This document shows positions 28,849-44,769 of a stretch of DNA of 44,769 bases, piece by piece; within the stretch, counting starts at the first letter, position 1; every line of letters begins with the position of its first letter. Source of the stretch: an uncultured bacterium (GTDB lineage Bacteria > Actinomycetota > Acidimicrobiia > Spongiisociales > UBA5794); the NCBI GenBank assembly GCA_965368515.1, contig CBDUNF010000003.1:1-44769 (forward strand). The letters are read 5' to 3'. The position numbers and the translations under genes were made by a program. A model generated the notes under the pieces. That model made no database searches, was not told the origin of the DNA, and saw nothing but the letters and a program-made list of their open reading frames with translations.

Positions 28849-28884
28849 GGCAGGGACAGTAGGCGCAGCTTCATACAGTCGGAA

Positions 28885-28899
28885 GTTCGAAATTCGAAC
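28885..28899. promoter_or_regulatory. Palindrome GTTCGAA-A-TTCGAAC between divergent oxidase and HxlR genes (putative operator)
   Basis: Perfect 7-bp dyad centred in the 84-nt divergent gap, between -10-like hexamers on both strands (TACTGT minus 28856-28861; CATACT plus 28920-28925). Confidence 0.6.
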
Positions 28900-28932
28900 C
28901 ACTCTGCGGCGGATCCTGGCATACTCAAACGC

Positions 28933-29610: not shown

Positions 29611-29664
29611 CCACATCCACCTGACGTCCAGAGCTGCGTCGTCGGATGGCGTGCGTCTGAAGCC

Positions 29665-30078: not shown

Positions 30079-30150
30079 GTCTGCACGATAGGCACCCTTG
30101 ATGTCCTCGCTTTACGGAAGGCTTGATCAGGCGTCGCTCCGGTGATCGCG

Positions 30151-30624: not shown

Positions 30625-30812
30625 AACCACTTCCTCTCCACGAGAGCCTCCAGGACTCTCGCTGTAGATTCAGCGGAACCCTTCGCGCACGCACCCGGTC
30701 CTCCTCATGGCATATCACGTCCACGAGGGGATGTCTACGGAATCAGTGCCGATCGAGCCGAATACCTCTCGACCGAAGTGTCGGTCGCACCAGCCGTGCC
30801 GAGCAACCCTGC

Positions 30813-31382
30813 CTATGCCGGCGCCGGTTCGTCCTGCATTGCGGTCTTCGCTTGCTGCGCTGCGGCCGGCATCTCGAGCTCAAAGCAGGCACCGCCGAGC
30901 TTGCTCGACGCGCCTTGATGCAAGGACCCGCCGTGTGCTTCAGCAAGAGATCGGGCAATGGGGAGGCCGATGCCGGAACCGGGAACAGCCGAGTCGAATC
31001 GGTGCGCTCCCCGCTCGAGGAGGTAGCAGACGTCCGCCCAGCCGGGGTAAGGCACCTCGACCTTCAGCACAGCCTCGTAGTACACCCAGATGATCTCTCC
31101 GATCCCCCAGGCGAGTACGCCAGAGCCGATCGTTGCCTATGCAATTCTCGATTGTCCTTCGTTGGTCACGGCGGCGGCGATAACGGCAAGGCCGGCGCCC
31201 GCCGGAACGATCACGTATGCAATCTGGCTGAAATCAAAGGCAAGCTCCTGGGGGAAGACCTCGAAGCCGAGCAGGGCAGTAGACAGAACGGCGAAGGACA
31301 GCAGGCTCAGCAGTGCAACACCCAATGCGCGAGATCGAGCCCTCGAGGAGCCACCCGCTTGGTTGGACGTTGTTGCAGTCAT
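30813..31382 (-). pseudogene. Degraded sensor histidine kinase: membrane N-terminus joined in frame to the HATPase_c tail, with an internal TAG
   Basis: ORFs 31137-31382 and 30813-31085 share one frame. TAG at 31137-31139 sits where Trp is expected (RIA*ATIGSGVLAWGIGEIIWVYY...PYPGWADVCYL). This is followed directly by ERG...PGSGIGLPIARSLAEAHGG, with no H-box or N-box. Confidence 0.75.
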
Positions 31383-31531
31383 GGGATTCCAGTCGCAGAG
31401 TCGCCTGATCTCCCATATATGTCGGCGTTCGAAGCCTCAGACTAAATCATCGGACCGATTGGGCCCGTTCCTTCAGACGGCGCACCGAGGGCCGACAGAC
31501 AGATGACCTGCACCAATCCGAGGAAAGACCG

Positions 31532-31921
31532 ATGCCAACCAAGACCATCCTGGTCGTCGAGGACTCAGATCCGACACGACGACTCATCGAGATGTGTCTG
31601 ACAATGGACGGCTTCAACGTTGTGCACAGCGTGGACGGCGAGTCCGGGCTGGAAATGGCTCGGGAGGTGCTGCCCGATGCCATCGTCTTGGATATCGCTT
31701 TACCGGGTATCAACGGCTGGGAAGTTCTCGAGCAGCTCAGAAGCGACCCCAGCACTAGCGAGATTCCGGTCCTCGTTGCAACTGCGCATGACAGCGACTT
31801 GTCTCGAGTTCGGGCCAAAACCGCAATGGCCGACGCCTTCGTCGGCAAACCCTTCAATCTTTCTGACCTGAGAACGGCGATCGATGGCCTGATCAGGGCG
31901 CCATCGCAGCTGGAGAGCTAG
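31532..31921 (+). CDS. Stand-alone response regulator receiver (CheY-like)
   Basis: ILVVEDS, phospho-Asp in IVLDIALPGING, ATA and KPF. No output domain. Confidence 0.93.
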   Translation: MPTKTILVVEDSDPTRRLIEMCLTMDGFNVVHSVDGESGLEMAREVLPDAIVLDIALPGINGWEVLEQLRSDPSTSEIPVLVATAHDSDLSRVRAKTAMADAFVGKPFNLSDLRTAIDGLIRAPSQLES

Positions 31922-32077: not shown

Positions 32078-33082
32078 ATGAACGTCCTCCGAACAGATGT
32101 TCAACAGAATCTGGCGGGGTTGCCGTCGGGAGTTTCAGAGGCGGACTACCGGCTCTGTGTCCGAGCTGCGATGCTGTATTACCAGGCAGGCCTTACCCAG
32201 AACGAAATCGGCGAGCAGCTGGGCTACTCCCGCATCAAGATCAATAGGGTCCTGAGTCTCGCTCGCACTTCCGGGATCTTGGAGATCCAGGTCAAGGTCC
32301 CTCCCGATTGGCACATCGAGTTGGAGACCAGCCTGATCCGTGAATTCGGCCTGCGCGATGCTGTGGTTGTCACGGCCGAGCAATCCGGGCGGTCCCTCGA
32401 ATCCGTGCTTGCTGAAGGTGCGGCCGGGTTTCTGTCAGGCCAGCTCCAACCAGGCATGCGCGTGGGGCTTGGCATTGGTCGAACAATCGCCCACCTCCCA
32501 GAACGCTTTCGGCCCGATCGCCATGTTGATTGTGCCTTCATCGAACTCATCGGGGCGGCATACAACAGGGATTGGGCGAGATTCGACGTCACGTCGAAGA
32601 TGGCAGAACTCGCTGGAGGAACTAGGGAGGCGCTGCAGGTCCCCGGATTCATCACTGATCCGGACCTCAGTACTCGTCTTGCCCGGGAGCCTGCCGTCGC
32701 CGCAACGCTCGATCGCGCTCGCGGGTCCGACATGATGCTGCAAAGCGTCGGCCCGGTCGACACCACAGCCATCCTCTTTCAATACGGTATTCTCGCCGCC
32801 GATGATCTCGAAGATCTGCGAGCGCGCGGCGCGGTGGGTGACGCTCTCGGTTACTACTACGACATCGATGGCAACCACGTCAAGTCGCTGAGTGATTCGA
32901 ATCTGATCGGAATCAAGCTCGAGGATCTGCGCCACGTTCCATGGAGTGTCCTCGTGGCCGGAGGCAAGCCGAAGGTCCCACCAATCGTGGGCGGTCTGCG
33001 CGGTGGCTATTTCAACACTCTCGTGACCGACGACGTAACCGCAAAGATGCTCATTGACTTCGTAGAGGAGCTCGACAGATGA
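32078..33082 (+). CDS. SorC/DeoR (LsrR-like) sugar-phosphate-binding transcriptional regulator
   Basis: AAMLYYQAGLTQNEIGEQLGYSRIKINRVL HTH. Sugar-binding domain with GIGRT, GAVGD..G.YYDIDG, VAGG..K and LVTD. Confidence 0.93.
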   Translation: MNVLRTDVQQNLAGLPSGVSEADYRLCVRAAMLYYQAGLTQNEIGEQLGYSRIKINRVLSLARTSGILEIQVKVPPDWHIELETSLIREFGLRDAVVVTAEQSGRSLESVLAEGAAGFLSGQLQPGMRVGLGIGRTIAHLPERFRPDRHVDCAFIELIGAAYNRDWARFDVTSKMAELAGGTREALQVPGFITDPDLSTRLAREPAVAATLDRARGSDMMLQSVGPVDTTAILFQYGILAADDLEDLRARGAVGDALGYYYDIDGNHVKSLSDSNLIGIKLEDLRHVPWSVLVAGGKPKVPPIVGGLRGGYFNTLVTDDVTAKMLIDFVEELDR

Positions 33083-33954
33083 GCGCTCGAACCGTCGGCA
33101 TCGAGATCTTCTACTTCATGGATCGCTGGTCCGACGATCAGGCGGCTTACTTCTCCAAAGCGGCCGAATGCGGATACGACGGCGTGGAGATCTCGCTGAT
33201 GCCCCATGTCCTCGCAGACCCACGCCGGATCAGAAGCGAAAGCGCCAAGCACAATCTCTCCGTTTTGTGCAGTACGGGACTCACCCCCGAAACCGACATA
33301 TCCGACCCCGATCCAGCAGTCCGCCGCAGTGGTATCGAGTATCTCAAGAGATGTCTCGATGTAGCGAGCGATCTGAAGAGCCCAATTCTCGGCGGCGTGA
33401 CCTATGCCCCATGGTTTGCGTTTCCTGACGACGACCTCGGCTCCAGACGGCAACGATCGGCCGATTCGCTGCGAGAGGTGGCCGTTGCCGCCGACGCCAT
33501 CGGCGTCACGGTCTGCATGGAAGTCCTCAACCGTTTCGAGACTTTCCTCATCAACACAGTGAGCATGGCTCAGGAGTTCCTCGCCCTCGTTGATCACCCT
33601 GCGGTTCGCATCGAGCTGGACACCTTCCACATGAACATGGAAGAACCCGACCTGGGCGCTGCAATCCGTGATGCCGGGCCGCGACTCGGCCACTTCCAGT
33701 GTGCGGCAAACAACCGGGAGATGCCGGGTAAGGGCCACATCAACTGGGATGAGATTGCGACTGCGCTCGACGACGTCGGCTATGACGGTTGGGTTGTTGT
33801 CGAGACCTTCCCCAACCACAACGTTGAAACAGGTCGGTCAACCCATGCGTTCCGCCCCCTTGCGGGTGATCTCATGGCAGAAGCTGGCGAAGCCGCCGAG
33901 TTTGTGCGCAAGCGCCTCGGTGGAAGCGAACGAAAGACGACCCCGAACAAGTAG
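33079..33954 (+). CDS. D-psicose/D-tagatose/L-ribulose 3-epimerase family protein
   Basis: GYDGVEI, DISDPD..VR..G, MEVLNRFE, LDTFHMNMEE, NR..PG.G and VVETF motifs. Confidence 0.88.
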   Translation: MSARTVGIEIFYFMDRWSDDQAAYFSKAAECGYDGVEISLMPHVLADPRRIRSESAKHNLSVLCSTGLTPETDISDPDPAVRRSGIEYLKRCLDVASDLKSPILGGVTYAPWFAFPDDDLGSRRQRSADSLREVAVAADAIGVTVCMEVLNRFETFLINTVSMAQEFLALVDHPAVRIELDTFHMNMEEPDLGAAIRDAGPRLGHFQCAANNREMPGKGHINWDEIATALDDVGYDGWVVVETFPNHNVETGRSTHAFRPLAGDLMAEAGEAAEFVRKRLGGSERKTTPNK

Positions 33955-33962
33955 GAGGATCT

Positions 33963-34988
33963 GTGCGGACCACGAAGCTGATCAACGATCCCGAGGAGAT
34001 CGTTGCCGACATGCTTGCCGGGTTCGCTGCTGCCTATCCGCACATCATCGCGCTAGAAGATGGACTGATCGTCAGGGCACAGCGCAAGGCCGCCGGCAAG
34101 GTTGGATTGGTCATCGGTAACGGGTCTGGTCATGAGCCAGCCATGATTGGTCTCGTCGGTCCCGGCCTGTTTGACGTAAACGTGCCCGGGCCGATCTTTA
34201 CCGCACCCGGTCCTTCCAAGCTGGCCCAGGGCGTAAAGGCAGCCGATGGCGGGGCGGGCGTTCTGATATGTGTTTCGAACCACTCGGGTGACGTCCTCAA
34301 CGCCGAGTTAGCTCTCGAGGATCTCGAAGATGAAGGGATTACCAACGTTGAGTCGGTGATCCTGTACGACGATGTCGATTCTGCCCCGCGCGGGTCCGAG
34401 CCCGAGCGCCGGGGCTCCGCCGGTCTGTTCTTTGTCTGGAAGATCGTCGGGGCCTACGCCGAGACCGGTGCCACCCTTGCGGAATGCCGGGAGATGGCAG
34501 AGCGGGTACGGGACAACACGAGAACGCTTTCAGCCACGCTTGGGAACTGCTCGCACCCAATCTCCGGCGAACCGATCGGTGACCTCGCCGACGGCGAGAT
34601 GGCCATCGGAGTCGGAGTCCACGGCGAGACCGGCGGTGATGCCGTCACGGTTCCCACCGCAAACGAAGTCGTGGACCTGATGATGCCGACGCTGCTCGAG
34701 GATCTCCCCTACGAAGCCGGTGACGAGGTGTGCGTCCTTGTCAACAACTCTGGTTCGATGACGCTGATGGAACTGTCGATCCTCTATCGCAGGATCGACG
34801 AGGTTCTCGGTGAGCACGGCGTCTCCGTGCATCGGGCGTGGCTCGGGCCATATGCAACCACCCAGGAGTCGGCGGGCTTTGCCATTTCGCTCTGCCGGGT
34901 CGATTCCGAGACCAAAGCCCTCTACGACGCACCAGCGGTTGGTGCCTCTGTCCAGTTCATCGCTCCCAAAACCAAGGACACCCAGTGA
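33963..34988 (+). CDS. dhaK: Dihydroxyacetone/short-ketose kinase substrate-binding subunit (Dak1)
   Basis: KLINDP, GNGSGHEP, GPIFTAP, NHSGDVLN, RRGSAG and GVHGETG. AGGAGG SD. Confidence 0.88.
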   Translation: MRTTKLINDPEEIVADMLAGFAAAYPHIIALEDGLIVRAQRKAAGKVGLVIGNGSGHEPAMIGLVGPGLFDVNVPGPIFTAPGPSKLAQGVKAADGGAGVLICVSNHSGDVLNAELALEDLEDEGITNVESVILYDDVDSAPRGSEPERRGSAGLFFVWKIVGAYAETGATLAECREMAERVRDNTRTLSATLGNCSHPISGEPIGDLADGEMAIGVGVHGETGGDAVTVPTANEVVDLMMPTLLEDLPYEAGDEVCVLVNNSGSMTLMELSILYRRIDEVLGEHGVSVHRAWLGPYATTQESAGFAISLCRVDSETKALYDAPAVGASVQFIAPKTKDTQ

Positions 34989-35644
34989 CCAACATCGCGA
35001 CGAAGCTCGACGGCAAGGATTGGCGGCGGCTGGTCCTCGCCGCGGCCGAGGCAGTAGATGAGCATGTCGAGGAACTCTCCCGTCTCGACGCAGCAGTAGG
35101 CGATGGGGACCACGGCGTCAACGTCGCCACCGCGATGCGGCATGCCCGCCGCGAGCTGGCCGACAACGCTGAGCCGCTTCCCAGCGAGGTGCTGAAGACG
35201 CTCGCTTCCGGTTTTCTCGACGAGATGGGGGGTGCTGCAGGCGCCCTCTTCGGAAGCCTGTTCAAGGTGGCCGGTCGCACTTTCGGTGACGCCCCGCATA
35301 CTGACTCAGCAGATCTGGCGGATGCGCTGACCGGCGGGGTGGAAACAGTAATGCGCCGTGGCCAGACCAGCCCCGGCGACAAGACCATGGTCGATGCACT
35401 CGTCCCGGCAGCAGCTTCGGCGCGCGATGCAGCGGAAGCGGGTCTGCCCATCGGGGAGGCGCTGGCCGCCGTGGCCGCAGCCGCCCGCAGCGGCGTCGAA
35501 TCTACGACCTCCATGCCTGCGTCCAGAGGTCGGGCCAAGTACGCGGGGGATAAGGCGATTGGTGTGCCCGACGCCGGGGCAACGACCGTGGCAATCATTT
35601 TTGAGGCTTGGGCGGCAACCGCATCGGAGAGGAACGAGGCATGA
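34985..35644 (+). CDS. dhaL: Dihydroxyacetone/short-ketose kinase nucleotide-binding subunit (Dak2)
   Basis: LSRLDAAVGDGDHG, MGGAAGALFG, GDKTMVDAL, GRAKY and PDAGA. GTG start overlaps the dhaK stop. Confidence 0.9.
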   Translation: MTNIATKLDGKDWRRLVLAAAEAVDEHVEELSRLDAAVGDGDHGVNVATAMRHARRELADNAEPLPSEVLKTLASGFLDEMGGAAGALFGSLFKVAGRTFGDAPHTDSADLADALTGGVETVMRRGQTSPGDKTMVDALVPAAASARDAAEAGLPIGEALAAVAAAARSGVESTTSMPASRGRAKYAGDKAIGVPDAGATTVAIIFEAWAATASERNEA

Positions 35645-37095
35645 CCGACATGAGACCCAATGAAGCAAGGCTTCGCATCGGCTATGTCGGGGTGGCGTTC
35701 GCATCGTATTACGGCATCGAGCTAAATCAGTACGGCAGAGCGATCAGTGGTCTGAGCGGCCTTGCGGATCGGCTCGATTTCGAACTGGTCGCGATCAAGG
35801 ATCCTGTAACCGACATCGAGCTCGCCGAAGCGGCAGCAAGAGAACTGAAGGCGCAGCAGGTCGATTTCCTGATGGTGCAGTTGGCGACGGTCGCCTCCGG
35901 GGAGCTGGTGTTGCCATTTGCCGATGTCGCACCACGGATTGGCATATGGGGCACCCCGGACCCCCACCAGGAAGGTGAGATCAAGCTGCACTCGCTGGTT
36001 TCGGTCAACCACTACGCGTCGATCCTGACCCGCTACCTGCGCGAGGATGCCCCGCCGTACAAGTGGTTCTTCGGGCATGTCGACGACCAGGAGTTCATCG
36101 AGCGTTTCGAGGTCACCGCAAGGTCATTGCGGGCCATCAAGAGGATGTCCACGGCGCGGATCGGATGGATCGGCGGCAACTCGCCCGGGTTCTACAACAT
36201 GAACTTCGAAGAGACTCAGATCAGGTCACGGCTCGGGACCAGGGTTATCGCTCATGAGTTTGGAGAACTGGCGGAGCTAACCGATGCAACCGATCGGGCC
36301 GAAGCCAAGCAGGTCGTAGCCGACCTCACCGCCGCTGCGGCCAATGTGACCGCGGGTGCGGACGGTATGGAAAGAGGCGCTCGCCTCTACCTCGCTCTCA
36401 AGCAGCTTGCGATCACCAACGGTTACTCGGCGTTGGCAGTTCAGTGCTGGCCGAAGTTCCAGGAAATCTTGGGGGTGGCTCCGTGCATGGCGTACAGCTG
36501 GCTCGGTTCCGAGGACGGCTTTGCGGTGTCGTGTGAAGGCGACGTCCCCGGCGCCCTATCGATGCTGCTCCTCAACGAACTCGGCGATCGATCGGGTTCA
36601 TCGACGTTGCTCGACATGACCGCCCTGGACCCGGCAACCAATACGATGTTGATGTGGCACTGCGGCGTCAGTCCCCGGCATTTTGCCAATGAGGACGGGA
36701 TCACCTGGATTGACCACCCCACCCTGGGACGAAAGTCGCCAGACGTATACGGCGTTGCCGGAGACCAAGTCTTCGCCCCCCAGGAAACCACGATCACCTA
36801 TGTCGGTGACAACGCCTCGGAGTTGCTGGTGGTCCGTGCCCGTATCGAGGAACACCCCGCCAAAGGTTTCACCGGTACCCGGGGTTGGTTTGGGGGATTT
36901 GAGCTCAATGGGGAGCCGATTGAGCTAGCAGATCTTGTCAACACACTCGTCGTCCGCGGCCACGAGCATCACTATGCGGTTGGTCAGGGCGACTCGAGCG
37001 ACGAGTTGTTGGAAGTTGCAGCCTGGTTAGGCATGCGAACAGTTGAACGCGTCGGCACCGCCCGGCATCTACAGAGACCGGGGGTGAACTGCTGA
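35641..37095 (+). CDS. L-fucose/L-arabinose isomerase-like aldose-ketose isomerase
   Basis: ALAVQCWP, PCMA, SCEGDVPGA, WHCG and HEHHYAVG patterns of the FucI-like family. Confidence 0.82.
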   Translation: MTDMRPNEARLRIGYVGVAFASYYGIELNQYGRAISGLSGLADRLDFELVAIKDPVTDIELAEAAARELKAQQVDFLMVQLATVASGELVLPFADVAPRIGIWGTPDPHQEGEIKLHSLVSVNHYASILTRYLREDAPPYKWFFGHVDDQEFIERFEVTARSLRAIKRMSTARIGWIGGNSPGFYNMNFEETQIRSRLGTRVIAHEFGELAELTDATDRAEAKQVVADLTAAAANVTAGADGMERGARLYLALKQLAITNGYSALAVQCWPKFQEILGVAPCMAYSWLGSEDGFAVSCEGDVPGALSMLLLNELGDRSGSSTLLDMTALDPATNTMLMWHCGVSPRHFANEDGITWIDHPTLGRKSPDVYGVAGDQVFAPQETTITYVGDNASELLVVRARIEEHPAKGFTGTRGWFGGFELNGEPIELADLVNTLVVRGHEHHYAVGQGDSSDELLEVAAWLGMRTVERVGTARHLQRPGVNC

Positions 37096-37223
37096 CGACG
37101 AAGTGGCCCGGCCGGCGTGACTGCCGGCAGGGATGCGGATGGCGCCTTCAGCCAACGGCTGCAATCGTCCGCCGCGAGAGGATCGGACTCATTCCAGTTC
37201 GAACAAATACGAGGAGAAGGTAT

Positions 37224-38573
37224 ATGACACATCTGAAGGGCAGCAGCTGGCGATGGTTGCTGGCATTGATGGCCTTTGCGCTGATCGTGGCCGCCTGTGG
37301 TGGCGACGATGACGATGACGCAGGGACCACGGAGACAACAGCTGCTGCGACCGAAAATACAGCCGCAGGGACCGAGACGACCGCAGGATCGACAGAAACG
37401 ACTGCTGCGGCTGGCGGTACGCCGGTCGATGCTCCCGGGTTCAGCACCTGGGAAGAGGTCTTGGCGGCTGCTGACGGCACCACGGTGAACTGGTTCATGT
37501 GGGGTGGCTCGGACACAATCAACGCCAACGTTGACAACGACATCGGTGATGCAATCAAGGAACAGTTCAACATCACGCTGAATCGCGTTCCCGCTGATGC
37601 CGCCGACTTTGTCAACAAGGTCCTGGATGAGTCCGCCGCCGGCGTGACCGAGGACGGCACCATCGATCTCATGTGGATCAACGGTGAGAACTTCGCCACG
37701 CTGAAGAACGCTGGACTGCTCTACGGTCCGTGGTCGGAATCACTTCCGAACGCGATCTACGTGCCTTGGGACGATCCTGCCATCGCCAACGACTTTGGTG
37801 AGCCGGTAGAGGGTCTCGAGTCGCCGTGGGGTCATGCCCAGTTCGTCATCGAGTACGACACTGCGTTTGTAGATGCAGCTCCGACCACGTTCGAGGCGTT
37901 GCAGACCTGGGTCCATGAGAACCCCGGCACGTTCACCTACCCGGCGATCCCGGACTTCGTCGGAAGCGTGTTCATCCGCCATCTGTTCTATTGGGCAGCA
38001 GGCGGACCTGAGCCGTTCTTGGGTGAATTCGACCAGGCAGTGTTTGATCAGTACGCACCCGTAGTTTGGGAGTACCTGAACGACCTCGAGCCCGATCTGT
38101 GGCGCGGTGGAGCGACGTACCCCGAAGGTGCAGCAATGGCGGATCTCATGGCCAACACAGAGATCCACTTCAATCTGAGCTACGACCCGGCGCGGGCGTC
38201 GACGAATATCGCTTCGGGTGTCTATCCCGAGTCGATTCGCACGTTCCAGTTCGACACGGGGACGCTCTCCAACAACAACTACGTGGCAATCCCGTTCAAC
38301 GCAGCCAATCCGGCTGGGGCGATGGTGCTTGCCAACTACATCCTCTCACCGGAGTTCCAGCTGATCATGGCTGACCCGGAGCAGTGGGGCTGGTTGGTGC
38401 CGACCGATCCGTCGACATGGCCCGAGGATGCACAAGCAACGCTGGCCAGCTACGGCACGGGTATCGCCACGATCCCGGCTGCCGAACTGACCTCGAAGGC
38501 GCTGCCCGAGCCACAGGGCGAATGGGTGACGGCCATGGAGGCCGGCTGGATCGAGAACGTTCTCGAGAACTAG
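37224..38573 (+). CDS. ABC transporter substrate-binding lipoprotein (YnjB-like)
   Basis: IVAA-C lipobox and Thr-rich linker. VNWFMWGGS, IDLMWINGENF, ESPWGHAQF, FTYP..PDF.G and LW..G.TYP motifs of the YnjB family. Confidence 0.88.
   Translation: MTHLKGSSWRWLLALMAFALIVAACGGDDDDDAGTTETTAAATENTAAGTETTAGSTETTAAAGGTPVDAPGFSTWEEVLAAADGTTVNWFMWGGSDTINANVDNDIGDAIKEQFNITLNRVPADAADFVNKVLDESAAGVTEDGTIDLMWINGENFATLKNAGLLYGPWSESLPNAIYVPWDDPAIANDFGEPVEGLESPWGHAQFVIEYDTAFVDAAPTTFEALQTWVHENPGTFTYPAIPDFVGSVFIRHLFYWAAGGPEPFLGEFDQAVFDQYAPVVWEYLNDLEPDLWRGGATYPEGAAMADLMANTEIHFNLSYDPARASTNIASGVYPESIRTFQFDTGTLSNNNYVAIPFNAANPAGAMVLANYILSPEFQLIMADPEQWGWLVPTDPSTWPEDAQATLASYGTGIATIPAAELTSKALPEPQGEWVTAMEAGWIENVLEN
37320..37415 (+). 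repeat. Imperfect T-E-T-T-A-A coding repeats (flexible lipoprotein linker)
   Basis: AGTTETTAAATENTAAGTETTAGSTETTAAAG directly after the lipobox and Asp run. Confidence 0.7.
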
Positions 38574-38583
38574 CCAACACATT

Positions 38584-38611
38584 GTGGGGTGCCTCTGCGG
38601 AGGCACCCCAC
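38584..38611 (+). terminator. Perfect 12-bp intercistronic hairpin after the SBP gene (mRNA stabiliser or partial terminator)
   Basis: GTGGGGTGCCTC-TGCG-GAGGCACCCCAC, 10 nt after the SBP stop. Confidence 0.7.
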
Positions 38612-38628
38612 CCAAACCTTCCCGGGAG

Positions 38629-39519
38629 GTGAGCGAACTGAGCGAAGTATCTACAAAGCGGCGTATCAAGGAAGCAGTCAAGATCCCTTTGATGCTGACC
38701 CCCGCCGTCGGGCTGATCGTGCTTCTGTTTGGAGGTGGTCTCCTGGTCGGACTAGGCCAGAGCCTTGGCTACTTCCCGGCGATCGGTCTGCGCGATTTCA
38801 CATTTGAGTACTACTTCTCGGTGCTTACCGACAGCAACTTCCTACGGTCCCTCTGGCTTACGTTCCGGATCGCGTTCATCGCAACGGTTCTCTCCAGCGT
38901 TCTGGCCGTCGGGTTTGCGCTAGTGCTCCGGCAGAAGTTCGGGGGCAGCAAACTCGCCACGTTCCTCTTCCAGATACCGATCCCGGTGCCACATCTCGTT
39001 GCGGCCAGCGGCATCATTCTGCTGATCACTCAGAGTGGACTGATTGCCCGGCTCGGCACAGCAATGGGTGTGATAGACGTTCCCGCCGACTTCCCCGCCC
39101 TGGTCTTTGACAAGGCCGGGATCGCCATCATCCTGACCTTCCTGTGGAAGGAGGTCCCATTCGTTGGGTTGGTTGTGCTTGCCATCCTGCAGAGCGTGGG
39201 GCCCCAGTATGAGGAGCAGGCGAGAACACTCGGTGCTAATTCGCGGCAACGATTCTTCTCGGTGCTCTTGCCCCTGATCATGCCGGGGATCATGTCCACC
39301 TCGATCATCATCTTCGCCTTCACCTTCGCCAACTACGAGATCCCCCTCTTATTAGGAGTGAGATTCCCGACGACGTTGCCGGTGGTGGCATACCGCCAAT
39401 ACCAGGACCCCGATCTGGCTCTACGGCCAGAGGCAATGGCGATCAGCATCGTCCTGGCTTTCGTGGCCATCCTCCTGCTGATCGCCTACCGGCGCCTAGC
39501 TAAGTATGCGGTGAGCTGA
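38629..39519 (+). CDS. ABC transporter permease subunit 1 (PotB/YnjC-like)
   Basis: Six TM segments, WKEVPF and EAA loop YEEQARTLGA. Start uncertain (GTG 38629, CTG 38638 or a later ATG). Confidence 0.9.
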   Translation: MSELSEVSTKRRIKEAVKIPLMLTPAVGLIVLLFGGGLLVGLGQSLGYFPAIGLRDFTFEYYFSVLTDSNFLRSLWLTFRIAFIATVLSSVLAVGFALVLRQKFGGSKLATFLFQIPIPVPHLVAASGIILLITQSGLIARLGTAMGVIDVPADFPALVFDKAGIAIILTFLWKEVPFVGLVVLAILQSVGPQYEEQARTLGANSRQRFFSVLLPLIMPGIMSTSIIIFAFTFANYEIPLLLGVRFPTTLPVVAYRQYQDPDLALRPEAMAISIVLAFVAILLLIAYRRLAKYAVS

Positions 39520-39520
39520 C

Positions 39521-40402
39521 ATGACCACTGATACCAAACCCCAAGATCAGCAAGAAGCTCCGAAGGAGTTCGAAGCCAACGTCGACCCGGACTCGCCGGC
39601 TACCCGTTGGGTGCGCCGCCTTGCCGTCAGCTCGATTGTCGTATTCGTCGGTCTACCGATGGTGACGCTCTTCGTCTGGTCGTTTGCTTTCCGCTGGAAC
39701 TTCCCCAACCTGCTTCCCACCGAGTGGGGCATGCGCGCATGGACCTACGTTGCCGACGATTCATCCCGGGTCTTCGAAGGCCTATGGAACAGCACCAAGC
39801 TGGGAGTCCTGGTCACCCTGATGGCAATCATCGTCGGGTTGCCGGCCTCGCGAGCGCTCGGCCAAAACGAGTTCAGGGGCAAGTCGACCGTTGAATGGCT
39901 GCTGATGATGCCGATCATTGTCCCGGCCCTCGTGGCGACGATGGGAATCCATCAGATATTCATCCGGCTCCGTCTCACCGAGACTCTGTTCGGAGTGGCG
40001 CTCGTCCACCTCATACCTTCCATCCCGTACTTCGTGCTGGTGATGGCAAGCGTGTTTGCCAACTACGGCACCGCGTTGGAGGAGACGGCACGGACGCTCG
40101 GTGCCAATCGATACCACGTGTTCCGGTATGTGACGCTGCCCGCGATTTCGTCGGGGCTCGTCGTGGCATCGATGTTCACCTTCCTCATCTCGTGGGGTCA
40201 GTACGTGACCACCCTCCTCATCGGGGGAGGTACGTTCGTGACGTTGCCCCTTGTCTTGTTCCCATTCTTGAGTGGAGGCAACCAATCAAACGCCGCAGCG
40301 ATCAGCCTGGTCTTTGTTGCTCCAGCAGTGATTGCACTTGTAATGACGTCGCGCCAACTCAGCCGCGATTCCAGTGTCATGGGAGGTTTCGGAAAGATAT
40401 GA
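39521..40402 (+). CDS. ABC transporter permease subunit 2 (PotC-like)
   Basis: WNFPNLLP, EAA loop LEETARTLGA and FLISWGQY. Confidence 0.92.
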   Translation: MTTDTKPQDQQEAPKEFEANVDPDSPATRWVRRLAVSSIVVFVGLPMVTLFVWSFAFRWNFPNLLPTEWGMRAWTYVADDSSRVFEGLWNSTKLGVLVTLMAIIVGLPASRALGQNEFRGKSTVEWLLMMPIIVPALVATMGIHQIFIRLRLTETLFGVALVHLIPSIPYFVLVMASVFANYGTALEETARTLGANRYHVFRYVTLPAISSGLVVASMFTFLISWGQYVTTLLIGGGTFVTLPLVLFPFLSGGNQSNAAAISLVFVAPAVIALVMTSRQLSRDSSVMGGFGKI

Positions 40403-41481
40403 CGAACGTATCGCTTCAACAGCTGTCGCGTCGGTTTGGTGACCATCTCGCCGTCCGCGAACTCAATCTCGATATCGAGTCGGGAGAAATGGTTGCCTTT
40501 CTCGGCCCATCAGGCTGCGGCAAAACAACAACTCTGAGAATGATCACCGGTCTCCTGCAACCCACGTCGGGCGACATACTCTTTGACGGGGAGTCGGTTC
40601 TCGACATCCCGACCGAGAAACGCGGGGCCGTGATGGTGTTCCAGAAGCACCTTCTCTTCCCCACAATGAACGTTGCACAGAACGTCGGTTTCGGTCTCAA
40701 GATGGCCGGCGTCGAGAAATCCGAAATCAATCGACGAGTTATGGAGATGCTCGAGCTCGTCGAGCTCCCCGAGCTGGCGAATCGGAAGGCCCACGAACTC
40801 TCCGGTGGCCAGCAACAGCGCATCGCCCTGGCCCGTGCCCTCGTCGTCAAGCCCCAGGTGCTTCTGCTTGACGAGCCACTGGCGAACCTCGATGCCAACC
40901 TGCGAATAACCATGAGACAGCTGATTCGTGACATTCAGAGCGAGATGGGGATCACTGCGATCTTCGTCACGCACGACCAGGAGGAAGCTGTGATGCTCGC
41001 CGATCGGGTGGCCTTGATGTTCGACGGCATTCTCCAGCAGGTCGGTCAGCCCGATGCCTTCTATCGCAGTCCGCGGACGAAGCGAGTTGCCCAGTTCTTC
41101 CGGAGCAGCAACTTCCTTGAAGGTACCCGTACCGGATCGACTGTGACCACCAGGGTCGGTGAGATCACGGTCGATCCTGAATGGGTTCCCGGGGGTGATG
41201 GTCCCGTGGTCCTGGCAGTCCGGCCCGAAGACGTCGAGCTTTCCTCGGCCGAGTCCGGTGACGAAAACCGGATCATCGGCAGGGTGTCCTCCCTCATCTA
41301 CATGGGTTCGCATACCCAGCTTGTAGTCGAAGTGGACGGCACAATCTGGCATGTCCAGGGCTCGGCTCTGCTCCGGGCCGATGAGGGGGACCAGATCTAT
41401 CTTCGTCTTCCGCGCCAGCGAGTCTGGATTGTGGAAGATGACGGCGTCGAAACAGTTGCGGAAGGGTCGGTAGCGGTATGA
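40399..41481 (+). CDS. ABC transporter ATP-binding subunit (PotA/FbpC-like with TOBE domain)
   Basis: GPSGCGKTT, LSGGQQQRIALARA, LLLDEPL and VTHDQEEA. ATG at 40399 overlaps the permease stop. Confidence 0.95.
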   Translation: MTNVSLQQLSRRFGDHLAVRELNLDIESGEMVAFLGPSGCGKTTTLRMITGLLQPTSGDILFDGESVLDIPTEKRGAVMVFQKHLLFPTMNVAQNVGFGLKMAGVEKSEINRRVMEMLELVELPELANRKAHELSGGQQQRIALARALVVKPQVLLLDEPLANLDANLRITMRQLIRDIQSEMGITAIFVTHDQEEAVMLADRVALMFDGILQQVGQPDAFYRSPRTKRVAQFFRSSNFLEGTRTGSTVTTRVGEITVDPEWVPGGDGPVVLAVRPEDVELSSAESGDENRIIGRVSSLIYMGSHTQLVVEVDGTIWHVQGSALLRADEGDQIYLRLPRQRVWIVEDDGVETVAEGSVAV

Positions 41482-42422
41482 CCTCCGCACCGGCTGATGT
41501 CGGCCTGTCGATCGGCAAGCAAAGGGCGCTGCAGTCGGTCTCGACGGCGGACGAGGTATTCGCAATCCTTGCGATCGACCACATTGGTGCGCTTGCGGGC
41601 GTGGTGCGGCCGGATGATCCTTCATCGGTCACCACCGACCAGCTGGTGGAAATCAAGGCCAAGGTTGTTGAGTTGCTCGGCGGAGATGCGTCCGGTGTCT
41701 TGTTGGACCCTGTCCTTGCGCTCGAACCGATCATCCGGCGCGGCGCTCTGCCCGGCAACGTCGGAATGCTGGTGGCGCTCGAGGACGGTGACTACGCATC
41801 GCTTGGGCGCTCCCCACGCCTTTTCGAAGGCTGGGATGTCGGCCGGGCCGCTGCGAGCGGCGCCACTGCGATCAAATGCTCATTCTGGTATGACCCGTTT
41901 TCGCCGTCGGAGGACGCACACCAGTTCGTCATGGACCTCGTTGCCGGCTGCGATCGTCACGGTCTTCCGCTGTTTGCGGAGCCCCTCGTCCCGAAGACCG
42001 CAACCGCAAGTGTGCGTTCGGTTGTAGTTGAGACTGCTCGCAAGATCGGTGGACTCGGCGTAGACATCCTCAAGCTCGAGTTCCCCTCGAGCCACCCCCT
42101 CCCCGGGGGCGAATCCGAGTGGAGAGATGCCTGCGCCGAGCTCACTGAGGCGAGCCCACGCCCATGGACATTGCTGTCTGGTGGTGAAGGGTTCGAGACA
42201 TTTGCCAAGCAGCTTGCGGTGGCGTGCGAGAACGGGGCTTCGGGCTATGTCGCAGGACGTGCGGTGTGGAACGACCTGGTTGCCAGCGGCGTAGCGGTTG
42301 ATGGTCCGGAGGTCGGAGAGGCGCGACGGCGTATCGAGGTTCTCTCGGAGATAGCCGCCAGTCATGCGACACCGTGGTCGCGGTGGTTCAACTTCGCCAG
42401 CACAAGCGGAGGTCAATTGTGA
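41478..42422 (+). CDS. Class I aldolase of the LacD/YihT (tagatose-bisphosphate/sulfofructosephosphate aldolase) family
   Basis: LAIDH, SGVLLDP, AIK, Schiff-base motif DILKLEFP, WTLLSGG and GASGYVAGRAVW. Confidence 0.85.
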   Translation: MTSAPADVGLSIGKQRALQSVSTADEVFAILAIDHIGALAGVVRPDDPSSVTTDQLVEIKAKVVELLGGDASGVLLDPVLALEPIIRRGALPGNVGMLVALEDGDYASLGRSPRLFEGWDVGRAAASGATAIKCSFWYDPFSPSEDAHQFVMDLVAGCDRHGLPLFAEPLVPKTATASVRSVVVETARKIGGLGVDILKLEFPSSHPLPGGESEWRDACAELTEASPRPWTLLSGGEGFETFAKQLAVACENGASGYVAGRAVWNDLVASGVAVDGPEVGEARRRIEVLSEIAASHATPWSRWFNFASTSGGQL

Positions 42423-43516
42423 CGATGCCCACGTTTCCAACTATCTCGGCTGAGCGACGGATGCAGATGCTGGCTGTGCCGACGGGCCGGCGCCGAGTTG
42501 TCATCGACACGGACACAGCCAATGAGATCGATGATCAGTTCGCCCTGGCTTGGGCACTGCAATCGCCCGACGTCCTCGATGTGCAGGCGGTGCTTGCGGA
42601 GCCCTACTCGCATACCCATCTCCGCCAGGGGCTTCTTGCGGCCGATGCTGCGCTTGACGCGGATCCTGCAACGGCGGCCGACATCGAAACAATTGACTCC
42701 TTTGCAGGGTGGGCAGCCCGACTGCGCGCCGCCGGCATCAACCCATCGGATATTCCATTCCCCGGCCCTGCCGAGGGTGTGCAGCAAAGTTATGACGAGG
42801 CTATCCGGGTCTACGAGAAGGTCGGTGTTCCGTCGCAAGGCAAAGTGTTCATGGGCTCTGCGGAGTACCTGCCCGCACCGAGCCAACCGGTCGACAGCCC
42901 CGCGGTCGATCGGCTCATTGAGCTGGCAATGGAGCCAGCCGATGACCCGCTTTATGTCGTAGCGATCGGTTGCCTGACCAATGTCGGTTCCGCAATCCTC
43001 AAGCGGCCCGAGATCGTCGAGCGCATGGTGGTGTCGTGGACCGCCGGCTACCCAACCTGGAGTCCACGCTCGAACCTTGGTTCGCTCAACCTCGACCAAG
43101 ATGTCGCTGCCGCTCGTGTTGTTTTCGAGAGCGGCGTGCCGCTCATGTATTTCCCTGGGTTCTACATGGGGGCGCAGCTCCGATTGTCATTGCCAGAGAT
43201 GGAAGCCTGGGTGAAGGGCAAGGGGGAGATCGGTGACTATCTGCATCACCTCTACACGAACAACCCGTTGCACGCTCAGCGCGGCATCAACGATCACTTC
43301 GGGCGGACATGGATCATATGGGACATGATCAACATCGCCTGGCTTCTCGATCCGACCTGGGTCCCGACCGAGCTGGTGCCCACACCAACCTACGACGAGA
43401 ACGAGTATTGGGTTCCGGCCCCCGGTCCGGAACGGCTCATGCGCGAGGCCCACGGTATCGATAGGGATGCGATCTTCAGGGACTTCTTTCGCAAGCTCGA
43501 GACGTCGCAATCGTGA
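42419..43516 (+). CDS. Nucleoside hydrolase family protein (atypical DxDxxNExDD subgroup)
   Basis: VVIDTDTANEIDDQFAL, VAIGCLTNV, NL.QD..AA..VF and IWD motifs. GGAGG SD before GTG 42419 (alternative ATG 42425). Confidence 0.88.
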   Translation: MTMPTFPTISAERRMQMLAVPTGRRRVVIDTDTANEIDDQFALAWALQSPDVLDVQAVLAEPYSHTHLRQGLLAADAALDADPATAADIETIDSFAGWAARLRAAGINPSDIPFPGPAEGVQQSYDEAIRVYEKVGVPSQGKVFMGSAEYLPAPSQPVDSPAVDRLIELAMEPADDPLYVVAIGCLTNVGSAILKRPEIVERMVVSWTAGYPTWSPRSNLGSLNLDQDVAAARVVFESGVPLMYFPGFYMGAQLRLSLPEMEAWVKGKGEIGDYLHHLYTNNPLHAQRGINDHFGRTWIIWDMINIAWLLDPTWVPTELVPTPTYDENEYWVPAPGPERLMREAHGIDRDAIFRDFFRKLETSQS

Positions 43517-44268
43517 GCGAATATCGATCGATCATGGAGTTGACGGCAGCCGACTGGGAGGGCGCAATCGGTCTGTCGGGCGATGATCTCCCGGTGGCCG
43601 TGATCAGCGAGGGAACCTGGTGGCGCGAGCAGCGGACCAGGGAGCGCCTGGAGTTACTCGAAGATGTCCGCGAGCTTCCGTTTCCGGACATCTTCGTTGG
43701 GAGGTGGCACGGCAAACCGGTTGCGTACTGCTGTGCGTACGGTGCGCCGCGTGCGGTTGAAGTCGCACACCTCTTCGGTTCGCTTGGTGCCCGGCTAGCC
43801 GTACAGATTGGATCGTGCGGTGGGTTACAGGGTGGGCTTGCCCCCGGCGACGTTGTCGTCCCGGACGAGGCGGTCTGCGAGGAGGGAATCGCCCGTATCT
43901 ATGGGGCCGGCGACAGTGTTGAATCGACCGCACTCTGGAGCGACCGAGCCCGGAGTCTGCTGGAAGGTCGGGGGCACGTGGCCCACGGTGGCACGCACCT
44001 GACGTGGTATTCGATCTTCGCCCAAAACGGCGGCATGGTGGAGAGCTGGCACGACGCCGGCTACGTCTCGGTCGACATGGAAACCGCAACAACCTTTTCC
44101 GTAGCGCAGCACTTTGGGATGAGTGCTGTTTCCATGCTCGTGGTCTGGGATGAGCTGCTGCGTGGTCGCAGCTTCCTCGACCCACTCGACCTTGAGCATC
44201 AGAAGCGCTTTGACCATGCGTACACGGACCTGTTTGCGGTCGCCCTTGAATTGGTGGACGCACTATGA
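43513..44268 (+). CDS. Nucleoside phosphorylase (PNP/UDP family 1)
   Basis: YGAP.A, QIGSCGGL...GDVVVP..A..EEG, VDMETAT and LVVWD. Confidence 0.85.
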   Translation: MSEYRSIMELTAADWEGAIGLSGDDLPVAVISEGTWWREQRTRERLELLEDVRELPFPDIFVGRWHGKPVAYCCAYGAPRAVEVAHLFGSLGARLAVQIGSCGGLQGGLAPGDVVVPDEAVCEEGIARIYGAGDSVESTALWSDRARSLLEGRGHVAHGGTHLTWYSIFAQNGGMVESWHDAGYVSVDMETATTFSVAQHFGMSAVSMLVVWDELLRGRSFLDPLDLEHQKRFDHAYTDLFAVALELVDAL

Positions 44269-44343
44269 AAACAAGCCAGCCGGGAAATCTGCCTGCATGC
44301 CCCGTCTGGTCAGCATCTGTTCGCAGGCTGAAGGAGTTCACAC

Positions 44344-44769
44344 ATGACCCTTGCTAGAGAAACCCTCATCGATCTGTGGACCCGGATGGTGAGGATCCGC
44401 CGGTTCGAAGACCGTGTGGCAAGCATCGCGGCCAACAATGAGGCCGACGGTTTCCTGCACACCTACTCCGGCCAGGAGGCCGTTGCCTGTGGTGTGCTCC
44501 CATTGCTAAACGATGGCGACACATTCACTTCCACCTATCGCAACCACGGACACGCCATTGGGCGCGATATTCCGCTCGAGGGTTTGGCAGGAGAGGTCTA
44601 CGGCAAGGCAAACGGCGTGTGCCGCGGCAAGGGCGGCTCAATGCATGTGGCGGATCAAGACTATGGAATGATCGGCGGCATGGGAATCGTCGCCGGCGGT
44701 CTTCCCATCGCTACCGGAGCCGCCTATGGGTACAAGTACCTGGGACGTGACAATGTTTCTGTAGCGTTC
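44344..44769 (+). CDS. ThDP-dependent dehydrogenase E1 alpha subunit (pyruvate/acetoin dehydrogenase-like); runs off the window
   Basis: Not in the ORF track. Manual translation from ATG 44344 (AAGGAG SD) gives MTLARETLIDLWTRMVRIRRFE...GFLHTYSGQEAVACG...STYRNHGH...GVCRGKGGSMH...GIVAGGLPIATGAA. Confidence 0.93.
   Translation, partial: MTLARETLIDLWTRMVRIRRFEDRVASIAANNEADGFLHTYSGQEAVACGVLPLLNDGDTFTSTYRNHGHAIGRDIPLEGLAGEVYGKANGVCRGKGGSMHVADQDYGMIGGMGIVAGGLPIATGAAYGYKYLGRDNVSVAF

Follow-up and report, generated by a model that had tools for sequence, protein, structure and literature searches.

A patchily distributed bacterial operon that may degrade C5-blocked ribosides by a route resembling the dihydroxyacetone phosphate shunt

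The closest described route to the one considered here is the dihydroxyacetone phosphate (DHAP) shunt, or 5-deoxyribose salvage, in which, in the passages of the source that outline it, deglycosylation of a 5'-substituted nucleoside leaves a ribose blocked at C5 that is turned into a ketose-1-phosphate and then into DHAP and a C2 aldehyde, by clusters that often include sugar transporter genes (PMC6079011). Here we describe a run of 13 co-directional genes (32078-44769, plus strand) at the end of a 44,769-nucleotide contig from an uncultured acidimicrobiian (GenBank assembly GCA_965368515.1, contig CBDUNF010000003.1), the whole of which we call the window. The gene combination matches no described pathway that we found, as the first-pass annotation had said, in a literature search outside which supplements and subscription journals lay; it appears to work like the DHAP shunt while being built from non-orthologous enzymes. 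We propose, tentatively and at somewhat less than even confidence, that an imported riboside is deglycosylated and its free sugar isomerised, 3-epimerised, phosphorylated at C1 by a DhaK/DhaL kinase and cleaved to DHAP and an aldehyde, with a 5-deoxy-5-substituted ribofuranoside, whose ribose is blocked at C5, as our preferred substrate class.

The overall logic proposed is that of the DHAP shunt (MtnN/MtnP, MtnK/DrdK, MtnA/DrdI and the class II aldolase Ald2/DrdA), but MtnK/DrdK, MtnA/DrdI and the class II aldolase are all absent from the window and from L002, a 67.6-kb contig of another metagenome-assembled genome on which all 13 genes recur in unchanged order (56-89% identity). In the proposed order the cluster would isomerise the free sugar before phosphorylation and add a ketose 3-epimerase; it has a DhaK/DhaL kinase, a class I aldolase of LacD/YihT type, a YnjB-type rather than a CUT2 importer, and a hydrolase with the nucleoside hydrolase (NH) fold, here called NH-like, not MtnN. 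As it fails all three of the enzyme families that define the DHAP shunt, we do not count the cluster as a member, though it may work alike.

Two further groups of pathways bear comparison. FucI-FucK-FucA and RhaA-RhaB-RhaD, which serve L-fucose/D-arabinose and L-rhamnose, isomerise a free aldose, phosphorylate the ketose at C1 and cleave it to DHAP and an aldehyde; unlike the cluster, they use an FGGY kinase and a class II aldolase and have neither a 3-epimerase nor a glycoside-cleaving step, and the cluster isomerase does not match FucI itself. Sulfoglycolysis (sulfo-EMP, with YihS/V/T/U, and sulfo-TAL, with SftI) is alike in having an SftI-related free-sugar isomerase followed by a kinase, a YihT-like class I aldolase giving DHAP and an aldehyde, with the lysine and phosphate pocket of SeYihT kept in the cluster, and a YihU-like beta-hydroxyacid dehydrogenase. 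The cluster differs in its 3-epimerase, in a DAK-family kinase in place of the PfkB kinase YihV, in an NH-fold hydrolase in place of the GH31 sulfoquinovosidase, and in a substrate-binding protein (SBP) without an evident sulfonate-type basic pocket. For the kinase, the erythritol and threitol pathways of Mycobacterium smegmatis reportedly offer a precedent, with DAK-family erythrulose kinases that act on short open-chain ketoses beyond dihydroxyacetone; these are said to be fused proteins that act on tetruloses and feed isomerases, not an aldolase.

The contig that makes up the whole window (C3) comes from a genome of 3.64 Mb in 350 contigs, 93% complete. Families were assigned with Pfam, NCBIfam and PDB sequence searches and one ESM-Atlas look-up, which together recovered every gene family that the first-pass annotation had named. 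The uninterrupted, overlapping plus-strand run that it had reported also stands: with start codons picked by homology, 7 of the 12 junctions among the 13 genes are 4-bp start/stop overlaps. The stop of the SorC-type regulator gene overlaps the epimerase start, the GTG start of DhaL overlaps the DhaK stop, and the ATPase, aldolase, NH-like and PNP-like (PNP/UDP-superfamily) genes are chained in this way. The widest intergenic gaps, 128 bp before the SBP gene and 75 bp before the E1-alpha gene, hold no terminator-like sites; the nine such sites in the region (7.9 +/- 3.2 in shuffles) are all intragenic, and 0 promoter-like sites were scored, in a promoter/terminator scan that is uninformative for a high-GC actinobacterium. 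At the head of the run stands the SorC/DeoR(Bacillus)/LsrR-type regulator with a sugar-phosphate-binding domain (32078-33082; PF04198, 188 bits), whose NCBIfam scores for DeoR (166 bits) and LsrR (141 bits) both lie far under the cut-offs.

The sugar and nucleoside genes proved to be co-conserved elsewhere, as the first-pass annotation had required of a single pathway. A scan of one genome per prokaryotic species gave at least 495 stretches that encode an NH-like relative; the best 80 of these were taken together with flanks of up to 10 kb (the L-numbered loci), and matches to the window proteins were counted by tblastn (E<=1e-10, at least half of the query covered). Other cluster members stand beside the NH-like gene in 73 of the 80 loci; in the remaining seven (L021, L025, L027, L034, L042, L050 and L074) tblastn gave no sugar, ABC (ATP-binding cassette), aldolase or PNP-like genes. 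Permeases and the ATPase were each found in 61 of the 80, the SBP in 51, DhaK in 50, the epimerase in 49, the isomerase in 47, the PNP-like gene in 40, the aldolase in 29, DhaL in 26, E1-alpha in 19 and the SorC-type regulator in 4, with epimerase, DhaK and isomerase all three present in 38. Since many loci lie on short contigs, the true numbers may be higher; all-against-all clustering united divergent aldolases as one family in 45 loci and placed the DhaL family in 36. A GntR/UTRA regulator replaces the SorC type in other clades (24 loci), and one family from the clustering, f24, was discarded as an antisense artefact over the permease genes.

Gene order varies by clade and gene membership is constant; L002, L003, L005 and L016 are fully syntenic with the window at 51-93% identity. 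The cluster occurs across at least four phyla, in free-living marine, sediment and sponge-associated bacteria: Acidimicrobiia (including the sponge-associated 'Spongiisocius'), Chloroflexota, Deinococcota (Trueperaceae, Meiothermus), Alphaproteobacteria (single-cell genomes, Rhodobacteraceae, Hoeflea, Bauldia) and Gammaproteobacteria (Granulosicoccaceae). Among cultured carriers are Paracoccus seriniphilus, Parasedimentitalea marina and Marinovum algicola DG 898, whose plasmid pMaD8 holds 15 co-directional cluster genes (MALG_04865-04879).

A reciprocal test was made in 201 genomes from the window's class, in which matches at E<=1e-30 were found in 5 genomes for the isomerase and 6 for the NH-like protein. 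Close orthologs of both (isomerase at least 59% identical, NH-like at least 53%) occur in the same four genomes (G000, G078, G126 and G182) and share a contig in all four, lying 6.8-6.9 kb apart in three of them; the weaker matches (33%, 41% and 39%) stand alone, and 0 of the other 197 genomes has only one close ortholog. G182, from the same order, has two NH-like copies (contigs C20 and C28, 54% and 53% identity), and its isomerase shares a contig with the C20 copy alone, at a distance of 25 kb. Neither gene was found in the nine genomes of the window's own family in this sample. We report the co-occurrence as counts with no P-value, since kin genomes are not independent. All this marks the cluster as an accessory module of patchy distribution, with sugar and hydrolase genes moving as a set. 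In three loci of sponge-type Acidimicrobiia (L033, L017 and L036) a ketol-acid-reductoisomerase-like gene (288 bits; cut-offs 226 for ilvC and 336 for PRK05479), a zinc-dependent alcohol dehydrogenase (Zn-ADH) and a major-facilitator-superfamily transporter are added between the hydrolase and importer genes, together with a small methyltransferase in L033.

The NH-like gene (42419-43516; PF01156, 66.7 bits against a gathering cut-off of 34.2) encodes a predicted riboside hydrolase of a distinct and uniform subfamily, about 365 residues long, with at least 2422 relatives at E<=0.001 (8000 candidates scored), many of them with PF07632. All top PDB Foldseek matches of its AlphaFold model (mean predicted local distance difference test, pLDDT, 86.7) are nucleoside hydrolases (TM 0.53-0.75, E down to 2e-13), and the nucleoside hydrolase equivalogs score 25-46 bits against cut-offs of 382-459. 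According to the part of the literature that we draw on, group I nucleoside hydrolases have a DxDxxxDD fingerprint that supplies two Ca ligands and, some 230 residues downstream, a third Ca-ligand Asp directly after the catalytic His that serves as leaving-group acid (PMC8910321). The fingerprint of the NH-like protein reads D30-T-D32-x-x-N35-E36-I37-D38-D39 (DTDxxNEIDD), two residues longer than, and so not matching, DxDxxxDD; set against DTDP--GIDD of 4kpn it leaves a 2-residue gap in a weak segment of the alignment. All of its Asp residues are invariant (18/18), as is D302, aligned to the last Ca-ligand Asp; the residue before it is W301 in 18/18 where E. coli YeiK has His. The Asn aligned to YeiK N166 is invariant, and the positions aligned, in a weak profile alignment, to YeiK N158 and E164, which we take to be 5'-OH ligands, hold a variable residue and a near-invariant Ser. 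IU-type nucleoside hydrolases (RihA/B/C, IUNH) thus share with the NH-like protein the fold, the Ca-ligand aspartates and the ribose-site Asn, and differ from it in the two extra fingerprint residues, in Trp for His and in an insertion of about 60 residues after strand 3. The protein keeps the metal and cis-diol residues on the NH fold; hydrolysis of an N-ribosidic bond would be the activity expected of the family. The protein is without a signal peptide, so its substrate should enter the cell intact.

Directly downstream, the PNP-like gene (43513-44268; PF01048, 81.5 bits against 25.1) probably encodes a second riboside-cleaving enzyme, either phosphorylase or hydrolase. DeoD-type models score 39-49 bits against cut-offs of 230-338, and there are weak matches to AMP nucleosidase, HpnG and futalosine hydrolase. 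Both M189-E190 and W212-D213 are invariant (36/36). The position that we take, by eye from the GSCG motif, as that of E. coli DeoD Arg87, presumably the phosphate-binding Arg of the R-x-G-S/T-x-G motif, is Q in 24, M in 10 and I in 2 sequences and Arg in 0/36; with this residue missing, the protein may be a hydrolase. Hydrolases of the PNP/UDP superfamily act on 5'-modified adenosines. In other clades, a DraG-type ADP-ribosylglycohydrolase-like gene adjoins the NH-like gene (6 loci) or a GH51-like furanosidase joins the importer genes (12 loci), so the aglycone may differ among clades and is not necessarily a nucleobase. A nucleoside as substrate, as the first-pass annotation had it, is therefore not supported: in the NH-like protein the catalytic His is missing and the fingerprint is altered, one phosphate-binding Arg is absent from the PNP-like protein, and the hydrolases of other clades differ. 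That the substrate is a riboside is suggested by the NH fold, the kept Asp and Asn residues, the M-E and W-D pairs of the PNP-like protein and the DraG-like neighbours.

Two genes are predicted to act on the free sugar. The isomerase (35641-37095) has no Pfam match; its nearest named family is SftI (NF048012, E 8e-45, 153 bits against a cut-off of 700, hence short of the family score), to which it aligns over positions 42-441 of 443. AraA is far weaker (NCBIfam E 8e-5, 21.5 bits against 622; PDB E 6e-5), and the ESM-Atlas neighbours are FucI/AraA-family clusters (0.95-0.96). We place it as an aldose-ketose isomerase of the FucI/AraA superfamily because of the full-length SftI homology and these neighbours. 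The epimerase gene (33079-33954; PF01261, 145 bits) encodes a ketose 3-epimerase of the DTE/DPE type, predicted to act on free ketoses; NF051856, D-psicose 3-epimerase, gives 218 bits against a cut-off of 300, and D-tagatose/D-psicose 3-epimerases in the PDB match it over its full length (residues 6-284, E 7e-51 to 3e-43).

The only kinase in the cluster is of the two-subunit DAK family, with Dak1 and Dak2 domains on separate subunits as in DhaK and DhaL. DhaK (33963-34988; PF02733, 325 bits; TIGR02363, 303 bits against 406) would be part of a ketose 1-kinase, with DhaL (34985-35644; PF02734, 160 bits; TIGR02365, 162 bits against 138) as its nucleotide-binding subunit. No DhaM-like gene was found in the cluster or in L002, a search that did not extend to the rest of the genome for DhaM or a phosphotransferase system (PTS).

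The aldolase gene (41478-42422; PF01791, 76 bits against 23.8) belongs to the class I (Schiff-base) LacD/YihT/DUF2090 group and is taken as a ketose-1-phosphate aldolase. It scores 175.6 bits for PRK12858 (cut-off 184) and 48-74 bits for LacD equivalog models (432-519), and its PDB matches are 8tnf (E 8e-27), LacD (E 5e-21) and YihT (E 3e-18); literature searches returned nothing under the identifier 8tnf. In SeYihT, the YihT of Salmonella, as given in the relevant part of the source, Lys193 is the Schiff-base lysine and Ser226, Ser227 and Arg253 form the phosphate pocket (PMC8006165). K199 of the cluster aldolase (in ILKLEFP) aligns with the Lys of DLYKVEMP in YihT, that is, SeYihT Lys193, and S234 and R261 align with Ser226/227 and Arg253 (LSSG and AGRAVW of YihT); K199, S234, G236 and R261 are kept in 47/47 cluster aldolases, in which the second Ser of the YihT pocket is A, E or G. 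With the Schiff-base Lys and phosphate pocket kept, the substrate is likely a 1-phosphorylated ketose, and DHAP one product. The same conservation led us to set aside a non-phosphorylative scheme in which the aldolase acts on the free ketose and DhaKL only on dihydroxyacetone. The D-Q-R motif of LacD, YihT and 8tnf reads D-H-I at residues 34-36 here and D-H/Q/A-G/V/Q/I across the cluster aldolases, with Arg at the third position in 0/47; we did not use it as evidence.

Import would be served by four genes. The SBP (37224-38573) is a lipoprotein whose N-terminus is a signal sequence with ...VAAC, and it reaches the family score of the YnjB type (NF008633, 442 bits against 203), a family for which our literature searches found no characterised ligand. 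It has no PDB sequence match; its model (pLDDT 85.3) falls by Foldseek in a group with PotD/PotF, PhnS, MctA and a Thermus dinucleotide-binding protein (TMq 0.53-0.61). Most of the invariant residues are aromatic or acidic, and a single Arg is near-invariant, a pattern that weakly suggests a ligand that is neutral or cationic rather than a sulfonate or carboxylate. Two ABC permeases (38584-39519, start codon uncertain, and 39521-40402; both PF00528) and a PotA/PhnT-type ATPase with a TOBE domain (40399-41481; PF00005, PF08402) complete the importer, the ATPase scoring about 322-325 bits for the PhnT2 and PotA models, under their cut-offs.

How these parts might be ordered follows from family chemistry. 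The isomerase and epimerase are placed before the kinase because both families act on unphosphorylated sugars. DAK-family kinases bind the substrate carbonyl covalently, and their known substrates are dihydroxyacetone, glyceraldehyde and erythruloses, the ketoses among them being unable to cyclise; a 2-pentulose without a free 5-OH likewise cannot cyclise. The need of these kinases for a free carbonyl thus points to an open-chain ketose, hence to a pentulose without a free 5-OH. D-ribose isomerises to D-ribulose (3R), and class I aldolases of the LacD/YihT/FBP type cleave 3S ketose phosphates, a preference that would give the 3-epimerase its role in converting the ribulose to the xylulose type. 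The importer would take up an intact riboside, probably a polar, neutral or cationic ligand; the cytoplasmic NH-like hydrolase would remove the aglycone with help from the PNP-like protein, and ADP-ribosylglycohydrolase-like or GH51-like enzymes would be added in other clades. The isomerase would then convert the free aldose to the 2-ketose, the epimerase would invert C3 (3R to 3S), DhaK/DhaL would phosphorylate C1 of the open-chain pentulose, and the aldolase would release DHAP and X-CH2-CHO (riboside -> 5-X-ribose -> 5-X-ribulose -> 5-X-xylulose -> 5-X-xylulose-1-phosphate -> DHAP + X-CH2-CHO). The aldehyde or the aglycone would be handled by alternative lower modules, here thiamine-diphosphate (ThDP)-dependent E1-alpha/beta without E2, a beta-hydroxyacid dehydrogenase and a LarA-type epimerase.

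That C5 is blocked is suggested by the positions aligned to 5'-OH ligands, which are not kept, by DhaKL as sole kinase, by an aldolase that needs a 1-phosphate and by the lack of a ribokinase in the cluster. Ribokinase, phosphopentomutase and DeoC-type genes, noted as missing by the first-pass annotation, were indeed absent from all window open reading frames (ORFs) scanned (ORFs 3-833 and 14721-15449 were left out), and a chain from C5-blocked ribose that uses every core gene once would explain the absence of ribokinase. The same annotation had called for a non-ribose or modified sugar. A C5-blocked ribose accounts more economically for the 3-epimerase, DhaKL and the 3S-specific aldolase, so a non-ribose sugar is not needed; of its examples, the deoxy-sugar comes nearest to C5-blocked ribose, psicose belongs with the hexose alternative weighed below, and, by reasoning only, an O2-methylated sugar could not be isomerised at all.

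The last window gene, E1-alpha (44344-44769), runs open at the contig end as 141 N-terminal residues (PF00676, 77 bits; TIGR03182, 150 bits over the first 138 of 315 positions) and is 87% identical to the E1-alpha of L002, where the comparison gives 326 bits for TIGR03182 against a cut-off of 394 and the E1-alpha start overlaps the PNP-like stop. L002 continues, co-directional and tightly packed, with E1-beta, a HIBADH-type beta-hydroxyacid dehydrogenase, a LarA homolog, LarC, LarE and LarB. In the window's own genome, contig C96 begins at its end with a HIBADH-like gene (81% identical to that of L002), followed by LarA (93%), LarC, LarE and LarB. Because of this synteny, the operon very probably runs on from C3 to C96 through a join that we infer, for a total of about 19-20 genes, with only the rest of E1-alpha and E1-beta unassembled. 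The run of 13 or more genes first reported is therefore real, and the cluster is longer. Beyond position 44769 the first-pass annotation had looked for E1-beta, E2, DhaM or a kinase: L002 supplies E1-beta, and neither E2 nor DhaM. No E2 or E3 gene lies in the L002 operon, where the HIBADH-like gene comes directly after E1-beta, and none is among the families that clustering found common to at least 12 of the 80 loci; a ThDP complex that oxidises a fragment, as first suggested, is thus not supported, though an E2 may be encoded outside the operon. After LarB, C96 (locus L084, 2881-7207, minus strand) carries a HisD-like dehydrogenase (425 bits, hisD domain model), then a gluconate-5-dehydrogenase-like short-chain dehydrogenase/reductase (SDR), an idonate-5-dehydrogenase-like Zn-ADH and a class 1 fructose-bisphosphatase, all absent after LarB in L002.

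Across the loci the lower part takes two forms. One, in 31 loci, consists of an aldehyde dehydrogenase, an acetate-CoA-ligase-like enzyme and a thiolase-like protein with a DUF35 partner (module A); the other, in 16 loci, is E1-alpha/beta, usually with a HIBADH-like gene and either a LarA homolog, as in the window's clade and some Chloroflexia, or an MR_MLE dehydratase-like gene, as in single-cell alpha- and gammaproteobacterial genomes (module B). The two are near-exclusive, occurring together in 2 loci, and probably treat the same product, either aldehyde or aglycone. For module B, ThDP-dependent elimination of X from X-acetaldehyde would be an attractive chemistry by analogy with sulfoacetaldehyde acetyltransferase and phosphoketolase, which are precedents for ThDP elimination.

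Several points weigh against the C5-blocked reading. The 5'-OH-ligand argument is weak, coming from a weak profile alignment and from residue roles that we have assumed. All the enzymatic steps are predicted from family membership, and most NCBIfam scores of the cluster proteins lie under equivalog cut-offs; aldolase and PNP-like genes are missing from many loci, many of which are truncated. DhaKL could instead be a triose kinase acting on an aldolase product, the ketose kinase then being the product of a gene at some other site. Contig C100 of this genome (locus L083, 1066-11378, minus strand) holds a canonical 5-deoxyribose/methylthioribose DHAP-shunt cluster. Its genes encode a ribose-type CUT2 ABC importer, an MtnK that passes its cut-off (398 bits), a bifunctional class II aldolase/SDR (931 bits) and two MtnA paralogs (410 and 388 bits), and they would make 5-deoxyribose and methylthioribose redundant substrates here. 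From gene content, the genome would thus have two importer-linked routes ending in DHAP, that of C100 and the predicted one described here. MtnK had no match in the cluster carriers G078, G126 and G182, and no bona fide methylthioadenosine phosphorylase or MtnN scored over the cut-offs in the window's own genome. Finally, the LarA-, MR_MLE- and HIBADH-like genes resemble sugar-acid enzymes and fit a C3-C4 aldehyde at least as well as a C2 one. The LarA homolog is nearest the LarAH14/15/16 group, in which a gluconate 2-epimerase is found, and glycerate, lactate and 2,3-dihydroxybutyrates are substrates of other LarA homologs; this fit to a C3-C4 hydroxy-acid is the main reason why we hold the C5-blocked reading only tentatively and still grant some weight to a hexose or deoxy-sugar.

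That alternative, which we judge unlikely but the most serious, is a furanoside of a rare hexose, 6-deoxyhexose or heptose (allose/psicose-type, omega-deoxy), with the NH-like protein as a furanosidase. The aldolase would yield DHAP and glyceraldehyde, lactaldehyde or a (deoxy)tetrose, DhaKL would partly serve as triose kinase, and the LarA-, HIBADH- and MR_MLE-like enzymes with E1-alpha/beta would process glycerate, lactate or tetronate. It would account for the LarA relationships just given, which extend to racemisation of glycerate and lactate and epimerisation of 2,3-dihydroxybutyrates, for D-psicose 3-epimerase as the best named match of the epimerase, for the similar scores of the HIBADH-like protein for tartronate-semialdehyde reductase and L-threonate dehydrogenase, and for the MR_MLE acid-sugar-dehydratase-like gene (12 loci) and the GH51-like furanosidases. 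LutB- and LutC-like lactate-utilisation genes (LUD domain, 4Fe-4S, LutB_C) also lie in the window (15233-17462, plus strand), 15 kb from the cluster, and might matter if lactaldehyde or lactate is a product of the pathway. Yet three ribosyl-specific families (NH, PNP/UDP and DraG-like) accompany the cluster, and the NH-like protein keeps the metal and cis-diol residues of ribohydrolases; moreover, cyclising hexuloses normally use FGGY or PfkB kinases, none of which is in the cluster, and epimerisation of psicose to fructose would make the aldolase step superfluous.

An ordinary riboside or pentoside with a free 5-OH, degraded via xylulose-1-phosphate to DHAP and glycolaldehyde, with the lower modules assimilating the C2 unit, seems improbable to us. 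The logic of isomerase, 3-epimerase, 1-kinase and aldolase works on plain ribose, the HIBADH-like protein resembles the tartronate-semialdehyde reductase of glyoxylate assimilation, a ThDP enzyme could be a carboligase, and the structural neighbours of the SBP include a (di)nucleotide-binding protein. However, a likely ribokinase on contig C57 of the same genome (260 bits) gives plain ribose a cheaper route, phosphorylation of xylulose at C5 would need no aldolase, and the positions aligned to the presumed 5'-OH ligands are not kept in the NH-like protein; we also know of no DAK kinase that acts on cyclising pentuloses.

Still less probable is a variant sulfoglycolysis that degrades a glycoside of sulfoquinovose or another sulfosugar with an SftI-like isomerase, a YihT-like aldolase and a YihU-like reductase, E1-alpha/beta acting on sulfoacetaldehyde or sulfopyruvate. 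Beside the SftI and YihT matches, the HIBADH-like protein scores 138 bits for sulfolactaldehyde reductase, and the HisD-like dehydrogenase after LarB on C96 recalls the 2,3-dihydroxypropane-1-sulfonate (DHPS) dehydrogenase HpsN, which belongs to the HisD-like family. These scores are far under the cut-offs (153 of 700 for the isomerase, 138 of 348 for the reductase), with other families equal or better; the 3-epimerase has no role in known sulfoglycolysis, and neither a GH31 sulfoquinovosidase nor a PfkB sulfofructose kinase was seen in the loci. The sulfonate pockets of the sulfoglycolytic proteins covered by the part of the source used here each hold an Arg (PMC8006165), whereas the residues that the SBP keeps invariant are aromatic and acidic, and only one Arg is near-invariant. 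Two unrelated adjacent units, an ordinary nucleoside-salvage pair of hydrolase and phosphorylase beside a rare-sugar operon, are largely refuted and very unlikely, for although the PNP-like gene was not found in 40 of the 80 loci, 7 NH-like loci are without other cluster genes and the G182 genes are 25 kb apart, the 4-bp overlaps run from ATPase to PNP-like gene, the NH-like gene lies inside the operon in differing gene orders in four phyla, close orthologs co-occur in 4/4 genomes with 0/197 holding just one, and many of the 'empty' loci are short contigs.

Within the C5-blocked reading, candidates that fit a polar or cationic importer are S-adenosylhomocysteine, S-adenosylmethionine, S-ribosyl amino acids and onium or arsinoyl ribosides. 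A more specific version, which we regard as a long shot, is that the cluster degrades 5-deoxy-5-onium or 5-arsinoyl ribosides to DHAP and X-acetaldehyde, the candidates being arsenosugars and their adenosyl precursor, or sulfonium and thioether analogues that derive from S-adenosylmethionine and S-adenosylhomocysteine (S-ribosylmethionine, S-ribosylhomocysteine). The variable N- and O-riboside hydrolases would then remove different aglycones from a shared 5-substituted ribose, and either E1-alpha/beta would eliminate X or the aldehyde dehydrogenase and CoA ligase would oxidise the aldehyde. In the arsenosugar case, if true, dimethylarsinoyl-ethanol or dimethylarsinoyl-acetate would be formed, which are long-postulated microbial intermediates toward arsenobetaine. 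We looked for a genomic link to arsenic and rejected what we found: an ACR3 gene follows the cluster in L002 (352 bits against 283), but ACR3 occurs in 1 of the 80 loci, and an ArsP_1-family permease 6.4 kb upstream of the window cluster has only 96 bits for Cu/Zn-efflux or SaoE-type models. No ars operon was found among the ORFs scanned at 15233-31921. A haem-binding-domain gene paired with an unassigned 255-296-aa ORF is found both in the window (24623-27506), upstream of the cluster beside the ArsP_1-family permease, and in L002 (18900-21057), downstream beside ACR3.

Other window genes are unrelated to the cluster. A phosphoenolpyruvate carboxylase gene and two tandem asparagine-synthase-like genes (4556-7910) lie within 1711-12271, where an ABC-2 exporter pair (9303-11371, minus strand) adjoins a TipA-type MerR regulator (11492-12271); histidine kinases are also present. 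An HxlR-type regulator and, on the minus strand, a BBE-type FAD oxidase form a divergent pair at 27457-29610, and between this pair and the cluster lie several short ORFs without family matches and a lone response-regulator receiver gene (31532-31921). Near-identical DNA was found in seven sequencing runs of two studies (marine sediment and sediment metagenomes), all of them DNA; no RNA run was among those matched.

If the C5-blocked reading is true, this widespread accessory operon is another answer, reached with non-orthologous enzymes, to a ribose on which C5 phosphorylation is impossible, and its dedicated importer would mean that the operon feeds on an exogenous metabolite pool not yet listed among the substrates of marine bacteria. 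As the operon is present in cultured strains, this can be tested directly. The identity of the substrate would assign functions to the NH-like subfamily and a first ligand to the YnjB-type binding proteins, and would also explain the role of E1-alpha/beta pairs without E2.

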